Positions 1 through 9,093 of a stretch of 9,093 bases of DNA are shown here, one piece after another. A program made the translations under genes and the position numbers. This stretch comes from a virus (Duplodnaviria > Heunggongvirae > Uroviricota > Caudoviricetes), in IMG/VR virus record IMGVR_UViG_2537561928_000018, one strand, 5' to 3'. Positions within the stretch are counted from its first letter, which is position 1. Each line of letters starts with the position of its first letter. The notes under the pieces were generated by a model. That model had not been told where the DNA came from. It ran no database searches and worked only from the letters and a program-made list of their open reading frames with translations.

Positions 1-540
1 AAAAATACTTAACAGAACTACCAAGAAGAGAGGGAACGATAAGACCGGAGGTAGTGACCTTGTTAGACAGGCTGTTTCAAAGCTCTTAAGAATCTGTTAA
101 GTAAGGTCATGTGAACAATCTTACCATTTTGTCAATGCTTTTGTCTTTGACCTAAATCAATAAAATGTATCGTTTGATGTGCTTTTAAACAAAGTAGCTA
201 AAAAATCTTTTTAGAGGGGCGCTTCGCTTGGGGTCACTATGTTCTTTCTCTCCCGTTAAGAGGGGAGTTACAGGGCATTTCAAAGCCCTGATAAGGTAAG
301 CCCGATGATAACAGAAACAGAGGGCAAAACCACTTATCAACACTGTGAACGAATAACGTAAAGGGCTGGTTAAGAAAGTCGGTTTAGGGATTGGTAGATG
401 ATTCGGATGAAGCATCCTCATAACAATACCAATTAGAAGGGAGCTTCCCTCTCTGGGGTTATCGCTCTTCTCCCGCTTAGTGGATAGCTAAGAAGGCTTG
501 AAGTCATCTGTGAAGGTGCTGAACAGCTACTATATTGGGT

Positions 541-583
541 GATTGCAACTCGTTGAAAAATAAGCATTTTTAGAAATCACTGT
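541..583 (+). repeat. 43-bp imperfect direct repeat, copy 1 (partner at 638-680)
   Basis: Seen in sequence: gattgcaactcgttgaaaaataagcatttttagaaatcactgt versus aattacaacttattgaaaaataagaacttttagaaattactgt; about 36 of 43 positions identical by eye, same orientation, 97-bp period. Confidence 0.6.
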
Positions 584-637
584 TAAGGTTACAGAGTCAA
601 CTGTGAAGAGACTTGTCAGTTCTCTATATATATGGCT

Positions 638-680
638 AATTACAACTTATTGAAAAATAAGAACTTTTAGAAATTACTGT
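638..680 (+). repeat. 43-bp imperfect direct repeat, copy 2
   Basis: See copy 1; shared core ttgaaaaataag...ttttagaaat.actgt. Confidence 0.6.
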
Positions 681-761
681 CAGAGAGGTGAATACTTGAT
701 AGACACAGCTTTCTGGTTCTGTCAAGCTATTTTTTAATAGATAGCACAAAATGCTAAAGAT

Positions 762-790
762 ACCCCTGTACGAGATGGTATAGGGGTTTT
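762..790. terminator. Hairpin with T-run, possible intrinsic terminator
   Basis: acccctgtac / gtataggggt forms a roughly 10-bp stem (one G-T pair) with 6-nt loop gagatg, followed by tttt on the + strand; sits about 10 bp 3' of the stop of the minus-strand ORF 800-1012, so it could act on either strand. Not folded computationally. Confidence 0.35.
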
Positions 791-799
791 GAAGGGGGT

Positions 800-1012
800 T
801 TAACGGGGGTCCGTGTGGTCATTATCCTTAAGGTCAAGCGTCCATGTACGACCGAACAGTTTAAAGACAACAAGCACTCTGACGAGGACGTAGCGGAGTA
901 ACAGACCTGCAATCAGCCCGATACCTCCACCAGCCCATACATCAGGTGACCCCAGTTCAGGAGGGAGATTTACCATTAAATTTCCTGTGTGCAATGCAAT
1001 ACCATGTGACAT
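800..1012 (-). CDS. Hypothetical small protein with one hydrophobic segment (70 aa; alternative start at internal Met, codon 977-979, gives 58 aa)
   Basis: ORF track; hydrophobic stretch AGGGIGLIAGLLLRYVLVRVLVV; no clear SD before ATG at 1012, weak AGGA before the internal ATG; region looks GC-richer than its surroundings. Could be spurious. Confidence 0.3.
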   Translation of the reverse strand: MSHGIALHTGNLMVNLPPELGSPDVWAGGGIGLIAGLLLRYVLVRVLVVFKLFGRTWTLDLKDNDHTDPR

Positions 1013-1140
1013 ACATAGTTGATTCGGTTAGTTGGGCTTGTACCAACCCCTATCGAATAAACCTCATAGCCACGCCTTTATATTTTACTCTCCCCATAGA
1101 ACCATTATACCACAGATGTTAATAAAATGTTAAAAAATAC

Positions 1141-1179
1141 TTGACATTAGTCTTTGAAAATGCTAGTATTGTATATATA
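1141..1179 (+). promoter_or_regulatory. Sigma70-type promoter P1: TTGACA, 17-bp spacer, extended -10 TGcTAGTAT, then TGTATATATA box
   Basis: Seen in sequence: ttgaca at 1141-1146, tgc-tagtat at 1161-1169, tgtatatata at 1170-1179; located about 50 bp upstream of the 1221 start codon. Confidence 0.55.
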
Positions 1180-1220
1180 AGTTAACAGAATAATAACATC
1201 TTATGAGGGTCGGAACATGA

Positions 1221-3573: not shown

Positions 3574-4284
3574 ATGACAAATGATATTTACATTAATGGC
3601 AGAAAGGTTGATAGCTTCGGTGACTGGTCGCCACAGACTGAACATCCAGCTATCACTATTCAGCGTAAAGAACACGATGAAAGAATTAAGCTTGAGCAAT
3701 CGTTAAAGATGTCACCAAAGGTAATTTCCTTTGTGTCTCCTGAGCCTCAAGAAATGCCAGATATCTGCAAAAGTGAAGCACTATTTAATCTTGAGCGTGA
3801 ATATTACCCACAGTTAAAAGCACAGCGTATTAAACTTGATGACGCTTACAGCAAAGTTACCCTGATGCAATCAGCTATTGAGCCGTCAGAATTTGAGATT
3901 CAGGATGAATTGTCACAGAAACCATTTGTCTATTACCAATACGAAGATAATGATGGTTTTGGTACTTTTCCTGAGAATATCCCAGACGTGATTAATAATC
4001 TTCCTGACGGATATCGAATTGTGAAGATGGTTAAAGCTTCAAGGGGTGCTGGTCAATTTATTTATATGACTAATAAGAGCGATGAAGAACTCTGTGAACT
4101 TGCTAGACAGAACATCTTGGCATCACGTAACAAGCAACTTGAAAATGTTAAGTTGTATCTCTCAAGAGAGCTTCAGGCTATGAAAGAACTTGTTAGTGAA
4201 TATGAATCACAGAAGAAGATTGCTATGCAAGCCGATATTGAGCAGTTAATGAAGATTTCTCAGAAATATGCAAAGGCTATTTGA
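3574..4284 (+). CDS. Hypothetical protein, 236 aa
   Basis: ORF track; SD AGAGGAAA 5 nt upstream of ATG; predicted helical, charged C-terminal third; no family recognised. Confidence 0.75.
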   Translation: MTNDIYINGRKVDSFGDWSPQTEHPAITIQRKEHDERIKLEQSLKMSPKVISFVSPEPQEMPDICKSEALFNLEREYYPQLKAQRIKLDDAYSKVTLMQSAIEPSEFEIQDELSQKPFVYYQYEDNDGFGTFPENIPDVINNLPDGYRIVKMVKASRGAGQFIYMTNKSDEELCELARQNILASRNKQLENVKLYLSRELQAMKELVSEYESQKKIAMQADIEQLMKISQKYAKAI

Positions 4285-4292
4285 GGTGATTA

Positions 4293-4601
4293 ATGAATGA
4301 TTTAACAGAACGCGATAAAAGAATTAAAGGGGTGATGGAACCTTTTGAAGATAGGTTCAATGAAATTAAAACGACTCTTGGTGATATTCAGGAGGTCACT
4401 GAATATCTTATTGGTCGTATGGACGAAAAGCCTCTTGCCGAACTAAAGTGTGATGGTCGGGATGATTTAACGCGACTTCTTATCGAACTCAAGGATAAGA
4501 TAAATAAGCTTGATACTGTGTATTATCAAACTGGTCTTTCACTACGTTATGAAATTCAAAAGAATGAACGCGGTGTCGAGTGTATACACTACTTAGATTA
4601 A
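4293..4601 (+). CDS. Hypothetical protein, 102 aa, N-terminus MNDLTER
   Basis: ORF track; SD GAGG 6 nt upstream; N-terminus paralogous to the next gene. Confidence 0.7.
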   Translation: MNDLTERDKRIKGVMEPFEDRFNEIKTTLGDIQEVTEYLIGRMDEKPLAELKCDGRDDLTRLLIELKDKINKLDTVYYQTGLSLRYEIQKNERGVECIHYLD

Positions 4602-4626
4602 AATCGAATTAAAAAGGAGGTGGTGA

Positions 4627-4830
4627 ATGATTGATTTAACAGAACGCTATGAACTCATCAAGGCAATTAGTGAACGACTGAAAGAACAACCCAACAAACC
4701 AAAACGAATCAAATCATCCACCTCTAAGCAAAATAACAGAATCAGAAGAATCGCTAAATGGTGTCTTGATAAATTACCAAGTGATTGTCAGATTGTTGGT
4801 GAAGATGGCAATTATTATCTGGTTGGGTAA
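4627..4830 (+). CDS. Hypothetical basic protein, 67 aa, N-terminus MIDLTER
   Basis: ORF track; strong SD AAGGAGG 6 nt upstream; K/R-rich middle region. Confidence 0.65.
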   Translation: MIDLTERYELIKAISERLKEQPNKPKRIKSSTSKQNNRIRRIAKWCLDKLPSDCQIVGEDGNYYLVG

Positions 4831-4904: not shown

Positions 4905-4970
4905 TGCTACGTGAAATCTGTAAAGCTAATACCCACACTGAAAAATAGAATTTACGTACAACACGCTTAA
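4905..4970 (+). promoter_or_regulatory. Conserved 66-bp intergenic element, copy A (upstream of the tape-measure-like gene)
   Basis: Shares the ordered blocks tgctacgtgaaatct ... atacccac ... aaaaat ... tttacgta ... cacgcttaa with copy B at 7049-7114; first 15 nt identical. Confidence 0.5.
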
Positions 4971-7048: not shown

Positions 7049-7114
7049 TGCTACGTGAAATCTTCTGAACAGATATACCCACCAAAAATTATTTTTTACG
7101 TAGCTCACGCTTAA
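7049..7114 (+). promoter_or_regulatory. Conserved 66-bp intergenic element, copy B (upstream of the 258-aa gene)
   Basis: See copy A; begins 12 nt after the stop of the tape-measure-like gene and ends about 80 nt before the ATG at 7195. Confidence 0.5.
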
Positions 7115-7982: not shown

Positions 7983-8678
7983 CTATATGATAACCTCATC
8001 AACATCTATTAAACCCCTCTCAGTGACTTCAGAAAGCGACTGTATAGCCTCTGTAACGTCCTCTGAGGGGTTTTCTGTTATTGGTAAGGTGATTGCTCTA
8101 CCGTTGTGAAAAGTTACTTTACAGCGACGTTTAGCAGTATTTAAAACGACCTCTTTAACAGCACTTTTGATTATCAGTTGTGCTTCAATCCTTCCCGCCT
8201 TTGTAGTCAAGTCACAATCAGACAAAGAGCCTGTATCGATAGACTTAAGCCGCTGTGTCTCCTTCTCGATATCCGCATCAACCTGTGATAGCTCACCTTT
8301 TAACTGTTTTAGTTTGCTGGTAATAGCGGACAAGTCTTCAATTTCAAGTGATAGCTGTACCAGCTTTTCAATATTGTTTGAGATGTGTTCACGGTGTAGC
8401 TTCAGTGTGTCTATGGTATTCGTCGTATCGCTATCAAATCGGTCAAGACGAGATAGCAGGGTAAGTAATGTACCATCGGTTTGCTTACGTGAAAGTCCTT
8501 TAGCACTACAACGGTTTTCATTACGAAGGGGACAACGATAAATCCCGTTTCTTGTATTGCTAAAGCCTGTGATAATCAGAGCATGACCACATTCAGAACA
8601 ACGGATAACACCTTTAAAGAGATTCACACTCAATGGTTTATCTGAAGCAGGTTTTCGACCGTAACGAGAATGTGATAG
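7983..8678 (-). pseudogene. Large serine recombinase, 3' fragment (zinc-ribbon plus coiled-coil region); 5' catalytic part displaced by the IS3 insertion
   Basis: Minus-strand frame is open from the IS3 boundary with no credible start (track start at 8633 is a TTG); Cys pattern RCSECGH...YRCPLRNENRC followed by a long heptad-like coiled coil is typical of the C-terminal region of large serine integrases; about 230 aa is too short for a complete enzyme. Confidence 0.7.
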
Positions 8679-8743
8679 TGATCTTACCCAGCAATAGTGG
8701 ACACGCGGCTAAGTGAGTAAACTCTCAGTCAGAGGTGACTCAC

Positions 8744-9043
8744 ATGACAAAAACAGTATCAACCAGTAAAAAACCCCGTAAACAGCATTCGCCTGAATTT
8801 CGCAGTGAAGCCCTGAAGCTTGCTGAACGCATCGGTGTTACTGCCGCAGCCCGTGAACTCAGCCTGTATGAATCACAACTCTACAACTGGCGCAGTAAAC
8901 AGCAAAATCAGCAGACGTCTTCTGAACGTGAACTGGAGATGTCTACCGAGATTGCACGTCTCAAACGCCAGCTGGCAGAACGGGATGAAGAGCTGGCTAT
9001 CCTCCAAAAGGCCGCGACATACTTCGCGAAGCGCCTGAAATGA
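8744..9043 (+). CDS. insE: IS3 OrfA (transposase N-terminal / regulatory protein), 99 aa from the ATG
   Basis: Translation MTKTVSTSKKPRKQHSPEFRSEALKLAERIGVTAAARELSLYESQLYNWRSKQQ... is the IS3 OrfA sequence as I recall it; the track start at 8735 is an upstream GTG. Confidence 0.85.
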   Translation: MTKTVSTSKKPRKQHSPEFRSEALKLAERIGVTAAARELSLYESQLYNWRSKQQNQQTSSERELEMSTEIARLKRQLAERDEELAILQKAATYFAKRLK

Positions 9044-9093
9044 AGTATGTCTTTATTGAAAAACATCAGGCTGAGTTCAGCATCAAAGCAATG
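9040..9093 (+). CDS. insF: IS3 OrfB (transposase catalytic part), 5' end only
   Basis: ATG overlaps the insE stop (ATGA); translation MKYVFIEKHQAEFSIKAM matches the IS3 OrfB N-terminus as I recall it; truncated by the window edge. Confidence 0.8.
   Translation, partial: MKYVFIEKHQAEFSIKAM

Follow-up and report, generated by a model that had tools for sequence, protein, structure and literature searches.

A copy-number-polymorphic non-coding module in an Escherichia coli island resembling a satellite of Felix O1-like phages

The pair of direct repeats that lies upstream of gene P1 in the 9,093-nucleotide stretch of DNA analyzed here (the window, with positions counted from its first letter) is a copy-number-polymorphic duplication of one functional module and not an iteron array, and a place within a conserved regulatory RNA or control region looks likelier for the pair than a role as replication-origin iterons. 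Taken alone, the pair is modest as a finding, being a polymorphic duplication of a conserved non-coding element whose function is unassigned, and the island in which it sits, which is widespread, apparently undescribed, and linked to Felix O1, is of more interest than the repeats. The island carries its own recombinase together with tail-gene homologues and non-coding segments that are common to the phages, and it therefore resembles a satellite-type element of Felix O1-like (Felixounavirus) phages, its putative helpers. If the module is indeed a regulatory RNA or a control site, it would provide a handle on how the island senses or manipulates a virulent phage.

The repeat pair and its unit

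A repeat search of the window places the direct repeat at 536-583 and 633-680, with 40 of the 48 nucleotides identical (83%) and 97 bp from start to start. Searching 200 shuffles of the window on both strands with the 42-nt core, and allowing up to 13 mismatches, returned no matches, and the pair proposed in the earlier note is thus real and far beyond chance. The 43 bp at 84% identity described there are a sub-span of this repeat, which is longer, at 48 nt, and is itself embedded in a unit of ∼95 bp. Alignment of ten relatives, and of 34 units from 20 related islands, shows that the full unit of ∼95 to 100 nt is duplicated head to tail, and that it is organized in the order AAGTT, a CTGTGAAG box, a short variable palindrome (of the CTNNNCAG type), TATAT, TGG, and the 48-mer. 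The period of the duplicated unit is 94 to 97 bp among the two-unit islands, varying because a (TA)n run differs between them, and the unit duplication is missed by Tandem Repeats Finder because the left half of the unit has diverged. The parts of the two units are as follows.

About 487-583, plus strand: distal unit (copy 1), with its best-kept core, TGGGTGATTGCAAC...ATCACTGT, at 536-583
508-515, plus strand: CTGTGAAG box of unit 1, followed by the short variable palindrome and then TATAT-TGG
About 584-680, plus strand: proximal unit (copy 2), with a core at 633-680 that is nearly invariant in all relatives
601-608, plus strand: CTGTGAAG box of unit 2, placed by the unit alignment

The repeat stretch is AT-rich (30% GC) and is non-coding, as had been proposed, containing only open reading frames of 37 to 44 aa that are annotated in none of the relatives, and no conserved open reading frame was found in it. 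A candidate small peptide in 681-735 was discarded, as its reading frame is broken in one relative (L008). Scans of the whole window gave no Rfam 15 matches at E ≤ 1 and no tRNA or tmRNA. The location upstream of P1 is correct but loosely described, as P1 starts at 1221, and a small minus-strand gene and a pair of divergent promoters lie between it and the repeats.

The number of units varies among the related islands, with two units in 15 of 22 and a single unit in the other seven (L007, L008, L009, L015, L022, L023, and the Salmonella island L027). The earlier note had proposed a search for further copies in the complete element, and none of the 22 islands has more than two units. The single-unit islands span several lineages and hosts, Salmonella included, and join the left flank of copy 1 to the right flank of copy 2, a pattern expected either from unequal crossing-over or from an ancestral state.

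The sequence of the module is strongly constrained. The 48-mer is without any insertion or deletion in all 34 units, and its invariant blocks are discontinuous (TGG, ATT, CAAC, TTGA, ATAA, TTTT, and GT); copy 1 is more variable than copy 2, and the same invariant blocks are kept in both. The repeat sequence is present and conserved in every homologous island examined. Per-site diversity, computed across 18 islands, is distributed as follows.

620-699 (copy 2 with ∼20 nt after it): 0.07
700-819: 0.11
Left half of the unit: 0.25
P1 coding sequence: 0.17 to 0.29
P1 core promoter: 0.055

Copy 2 and the ∼100 nt that follow it are among the least variable DNA of the region, and their low diversity, together with the lack of a conserved open reading frame, argues that they are functional and non-coding. 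Neither the 48-mer nor the unit was found in Felixounavirus or other phages by blastn, a mismatch scan, nhmmer, or an IMG/VR pattern scan, and all matches to the unit are in island-like contigs; its absence from phages suggests an island-specific function and not a copied phage site.

The polymorphism in copy number allows the duplication to be read as neutral, with the proximal copy alone being functional and the distal copy a passenger of unequal crossing-over, and both the spread of single-unit islands over several lineages and hosts and the greater variability of copy 1 agree with this. We regard it as improbable, however, as copy 1 retains every invariant block of copy 2 although the DNA adjacent to it on the left has diverged (0.25), and copy 1 thus still appears to be under selection.

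Conserved direct repeats in the AT-rich, non-coding DNA of a mobile element also bring to mind the iterons of a replication origin, a partition site, or a site-specific recombination site, all of which had been suggested for the pair, and the PLE, SaPI, and P4 satellites do place repeats in their origins. The likeness to PLE of Vibrio cholerae, the SaPI ori, and the P4 ori/crr lies in the direct repeats within a long non-coding stretch of a small, recombinase-integrated island with one helper, and in the case of PLE it extends to a large serine recombinase and a virulent myovirus as the helper (here an apparent one). Nonetheless, it is very unlikely that the copies have any of these three roles. 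Iteron origins have at least three direct repeats of about 17 to 22 bp, usually spaced ∼22 bp apart, and an adjacent Rep gene, whereas the island has one or two copies of a ∼95-bp unit with a 94- to 97-bp period, no short or phased sub-repeats, and no recognized initiator gene. Searches of Pfam, PHROGs, and NCBIfam with the island proteins, several of which are without assigned function, identified no Rep, primase, or helicase family; the AlphaFold structure model of the P1 protein (pLDDT of 43) is too poor to use. No parA- or parB-type genes are present in the island, which speaks against a partition site, and because the repetition itself is not conserved (one unit in 7 of 22 islands and never more than two), both an iteron array and a centromere-like site are disfavored. 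As for recombination, the island has its attachment sites at the two ends, whereas the repeats are internal, some 2.5 kb from the left end, and are about 1.5 kb from the small resolvase gene in those islands that have one. Moreover, the repeats are retained in lineages without the small resolvase; the lineage of the window has lost this gene and keeps both copies, and a res-type site is therefore unlikely.

A possible structured RNA or cluster of protein-binding sites

The reading that we prefer, held tentatively and at somewhat less than an even chance, is that copy 2 begins a structured plus-strand non-coding RNA or a leader or 3′ untranslated region. The stretch from about 612 or 633 to 790 would be transcribed on the plus strand as a structured RNA with the 48-mer as its 5′ part, and it would end at the hairpin at 763-790, a putative bidirectional terminator common to the RNA and the convergent small gene at 800-976. 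Such an RNA would regulate the small gene, or another transcript made by the island or by the helper phage, and the distal copy would supply the 5′ module once more in slightly degenerate form. Whereas the duplication, its polymorphism in copy number, the sequence constraint, the lack of the unit in the helper phage, and the strand asymmetry of folding and substitutions are observed, we infer the existence of the RNA, as well as its start, stop, and targets. The features of the region between copy 2 and P1 are the following.

681-762, plus strand: conserved block 3′ of copy 2, with predicted hairpins inside
695-703 with 718-726, plus strand: predicted 9-bp stem CTTGATAGA/TCTGTCAAG, from the consensus fold
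742-746 with 752-756, plus strand: predicted stem TAGCA/TGCTA, from the consensus fold
763-790, both strands: GC-rich hairpin CCCCTGTACGAGATGGTATAGGGG (763-786) and then TTTT, terminator-like on either strand
800-976, minus strand: conserved small gene, annotated in relatives, converging on the repeat region
1104-1169, both strands: divergent sigma70 promoters, back to back (diversity, 0.055 to 0.09)
1133 to 1104, minus strand: strong leftward promoter, TTAACA-18-TATAAT, driving the small gene at 800-976
1141-1169, plus strand: strong sigma70 promoter of P1, TTGACA-17-TAGTAT, with the rightward operon behind it

Both the folding and the substitutions point to a plus-strand RNA. First, the plus strand, and not the minus strand, folds better than shuffled sequence; compared with dinucleotide shuffles, the plus strand has z scores of −2.4 (633-760), −3.2 (612-760), and −3.0 (487-800), and those of the minus strand range from −0.2 to −1.1. 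Second, the substitutions are strand-asymmetric. Among columns predicted to be paired in the plus strand, 11 of 25 A positions have A>G changes, compared with 3 of 30 T positions that have T>C changes (Fisher P = 0.005, in a test that counts sites and not independent events, among closely related sequences), and the two rates are equal at unpaired columns. The ratio of pair-keeping to pair-breaking transitions is 12:5 for the plus-strand fold and 3:11 for the minus-strand consensus fold. This asymmetry is what G·U-tolerant pairing in a plus-strand transcript would leave, and in the divergent lineage L021, a stem is altered by an A>G change opposite a T. No base pair has compensatory double changes and covariation scores equal those of shuffled controls, as the relatives are too similar for such changes.

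No plus-strand promoter for the RNA was found. A conserved TATAT(T/A) precedes the TGG and is without a usable −35 element, the hexamer at that position being TGTGAA, and a phage-type promoter class of the form CTGTGAAG-N-TATAT was considered and dropped, as this arrangement is absent from the phage genome. The 48-mer was also considered as a hairpin in its own right, but both the outer stem, (G)T(A/G)ATT/AAT(T/C)A(C), and the inner stem, CTTATT/AATAAG, are statistically unsupported, and of 23 distinct sequences, 14 do not keep the U16-A27 pair. When phage D4 and the island were searched for sequences to which the conserved block could be antisense, nothing beyond chance matches of 12 to 14 nt was found.

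The conserved GC-rich hairpin at which the RNA would end adjoins the stop codon of the convergent small gene, and because of this position at the 3′ end of the gene, it would serve both transcripts. A terminator scan scores the hairpin at 763-786 as a minus-strand terminator of the small gene in relatives; on the plus strand, the U-run that follows it is 4 nt and is shorter in some relatives. Most related islands carry the hairpin as CCCCTATACCATCTCGTACAGGGG, to which CCCCTGTACGAGATGGTATAGGGG of the window is exactly reverse complementary; L001, L012, and L023 have it in one orientation and the other islands in the opposite one. The small palindromic segment has thus been flipped between lineages, an inversion by which the stem is kept on both strands. 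A short tandem repeat (AGGGGGTTTAA, 2.6 copies) at 782-810 comes directly after the hairpin and extends into the 3′ end of the small gene.

The small gene codes for a protein of 58 to 62 aa with a single hydrophobic helix (MVNLPPELGSPDVWAGGGIGLIAGLLLRYVLVRVLVVF...), for which no match to known families was found. Given a strong promoter that is back to back with that of P1, the protein could be a toxin, a holin-like protein, or an exclusion protein. The organization is similar to that of type I toxin-antitoxin systems with a 3′ overlap, such as txpA/RatA and bsrG/SR4 of Bacillus prophage-like elements, in which a small hydrophobic-protein gene converges on a structured non-coding stretch in a phage-related element and a hairpin terminator is shared, although here the two could overlap by no more than the ∼28-nt hairpin, a search for a promoter of the RNA found none, and neither partner has a family match. 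Near the divergent promoters, 20-nt inverted repeats (AGATGTTAATAAAATGTTAA and TTAACAGAATAATAACATCT, 80% complementary) flank the P1 promoter at 1114-1201 (21114-21201 in L001), and they are candidate operators, since their TGTTAA core is enriched in the non-coding region of the phage.

A serious alternative to the RNA, which we consider somewhat less likely, is that the module consists of clustered sites at which a protein encoded by the island or the helper binds double-stranded DNA, and that it serves as an operator, an accessory site for replication or packaging, or a nucleoprotein scaffold. The lack of indels in the 48-mer in 34 units, the discontinuous invariant blocks, and the flanking boxes of the CTGTNAAG and CTNNACAG types fit a protein-binding module about as well as they fit an RNA, and both the near-complete invariance of the CTGTGAAG box, which is unchanged in nearly every unit of the alignment, and the AT-rich composition of the stretch are in keeping with DNA sites. 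Related 8-mers are hugely enriched in the non-coding terminal-repeat region of the helper phage, other non-coding pieces of the island are copied from the same phage region, and TGTTAA-containing inverted repeats are present around the P1 promoter. On the other hand, the 48-mer is absent from the phage, the enrichment of CTTAACAG-type 8-mers within the island is no more than mild (5 compared with about 1 expected), and no DNA-binding or initiator family is recognized among the island proteins. The strand-asymmetric substitutions on which the preferred RNA reading draws are also unexpected for a duplex binding site.

A further alternative concerns the opposite strand. The earlier note had stated that neither copy makes a properly spaced sigma70 promoter, and this holds for the plus strand, whereas on the minus strand, each copy has a 9-of-12 match to the consensus hexamers with an 18-bp spacer. 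Each copy could therefore be a weak minus-strand sigma70 promoter (TTAACA or CTGACA, 18 bp, TATTTT), the two forming tandem leftward promoters for a non-coding or antisense RNA directed toward the methylase side of the island. A consensus scan flags these sites in the window (586 to 557 and 683 to 654) and also in L027 (5462 to 5433) and L028 (5411 to 5382 and 5316 to 5287), and the hexamers and the 18-bp spacing, which give each copy its likeness to one of a set of tandem sigma70 promoters, are kept in 31 to 34 of the 34 units. Nonetheless, the match reaches just 9 of 12, the spacer is non-optimal, and matches of this quality are at chance level, with 19 sites found compared to 23.9 expected in shuffles, and conservation reaches well beyond the hexamers, with invariant positions in the would-be spacer and in the part that would be transcribed. 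Furthermore, the minus-strand RNA has no folding signal, any resemblance to the P1 promoter is not above chance, and there is no obvious gene or terminator in the leftward direction, and we consider such promoters to be rather improbable. The related idea that the unit is an inverted paralogue of the P1 promoter was rejected, as the local alignment score is within the shuffle distribution.

The island and its relatives

An uninterrupted copy of the ∼11.5-kb island, of which the window is the larger part, is present in NZ_CP058901 (locus L001, 18086-29576), where it splits yecE, into which a large serine recombinase has inserted it. The window is chromosomal DNA of E. coli, and at least 80% of it is present at 99.9 to 100% identity in 119 complete E. 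coli genomes. The island is organized, from left to right, with a leftward-transcribed HNH-AP2 homing-endonuclease gene, a gene-free part of ∼1.6 kb in which the repeats are located, a rightward operon, and a leftward-transcribed gene for a large serine recombinase. Encoded in the operon are a tape-measure protein and a Dit-like tail protein, both with homologues encoded by two consecutive Felixounavirus tail genes, along with an HNH endonuclease and seven proteins without assigned function. Identity to the phage D4 homologue is 32% for the tape-measure protein, with the first 28 residues almost identical, and 81% for the Dit-like protein; more than 200 Felix O1-type genomes match the Dit-like gene at 94 to 95% nucleotide identity over 544 nt. 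Elsewhere in the window, the genes for neighboring 102-aa and 67-aa proteins (starting MNDLTERDKRIK and MIDLTERYELIK, respectively) have 5′ ends (4283-4319 and 4617-4653) that are 86% identical over 37 nt, a local gene duplication.

The related islands are located in yecE, beside yciI, or beside ymdF. Most of them have a small resolvase and a Dam methylase at the position where the lineage of the window has the HNH-AP2 homing endonuclease (19120-19644 in L001), which is present in that lineage and in O157:H7, in contrast to L004, L005, L027, and L028. The small resolvase gene occurs in both orientations, its alleles are divergent, and a simple inversion does not account for the flipped form, since blastn shows that the alleles are different. 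The large serine recombinase gene is truncated in the window by an IS3-family element (8663-9093, with an orfA-type transposase from 8735), and other copies of the island have IS2, ISEc12, IS100, or IS1203 in the tape-measure gene or elsewhere; these insertions suggest that many copies are decaying.

Of 5,426 complete E. coli genomes, 429 (∼8%) have homologues of window positions 440-1220, and the region is also carried by many Shigella sonnei and Salmonella assemblies. Close homologues of the P1 protein number more than 1,000 and come from E. coli, Shigella sonnei, Salmonella, E. fergusonii, and E. albertii. The P1 family is narrow, with almost no distant homologues and a single full-length cluster at 50% identity. 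The island is neither SpLE2 nor Sp13 of O157 Sakai, both of which were considered and are different elements, and a literature search for a Felix O1-associated satellite or for the present island found no relevant paper. A broader proposal, more speculative than probable, is that these islands make up an undescribed family of satellites of virulent Felix O1-type phages, widespread in E. coli, Shigella sonnei, and Salmonella, with tape-measure and Dit-like tail genes of their own and mimicry of the phage terminal-repeat region, and with the module as a new satellite-specific regulatory RNA or a helper-sensing cis element that governs switching between the small gene and the rightward operon. 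Felix O1-type phages are widely used in Salmonella typing, biocontrol, and therapy, and with the island widespread in these hosts, either interference with the phage or riding on it would affect phage efficacy and gene transfer.

Links to Felixounavirus DNA

The non-coding links to the putative helpers center on the phage terminal repeat. The genome of phage vB_EcoM_D4 has a 581-bp direct terminal repeat, its first 581 bases being the same as its last 581, and this repeat is within a gene-free region of about 1.4 to 1.7 kb; PhageTerm results have been reported for Felixounavirus phages (PMC11737134). Short boxes are dense in the D4 region, with CTTGTTAG observed 16 times compared with 0.06 expected and CTGTTAAG 11 times compared with 0.17. 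The island resembles this region in its short boxes (TGTTAA/CTGTTAAG) and has three segments in common with it, namely 20-65, 384-435, and the GATTGGTAACAATACCAAT palindrome, although the phage region is without the 95-bp unit and its 48-mer core. Window positions 20-65 (plus strand) are 81% identical to positions 255-302 of the D4 terminal repeat. The segment at 384-435 (plus strand) is a 52-nt palindromic block, in which the inverted repeat TTGGTA/TACCAA encloses another, GGATG/CATCC, and it is 94 to 100% identical to non-coding DNA of NBEco004, NBEco005, and EC106, the only three Felixounavirus genomes that it matches. A second copy is present at the left end of the island (18113-18164 in L001), 2,271 bp away, and a short form, GATTGGTAACAATACCAAT, which lacks the inner ∼28 nt, is found in other relatives and elsewhere in the phage.

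Other repeats are present in the coding part of the island and in the phage. A 66-nt direct repeat (4905-4970 and 7049-7114, 71% identical) is positioned just 5′ of the tape-measure and Dit-like genes, and each copy contains TACGTGAAA and an inverted TACGTAAAA-like motif. The motif TACGTRAAA occurs five times in the window compared with 0.15 expected, and D4 has two GTTACGTAAA motifs immediately outside the left boundary of its terminal repeat; the 66-nt repeat and the TACGTRAAA motifs are a possible shared regulatory or packaging signal. In the early region of D4 (L025/L026, for example 82737-88146), an intergenic element, CTTTACAAGGGGCTTA...TAAGCCCCAGATAAAGAGC, is repeated many times, and it consists of promoter-like hexamers and a stem-loop, resembling the 57-bp repeats reported for Felix O1 (PMC3185647).
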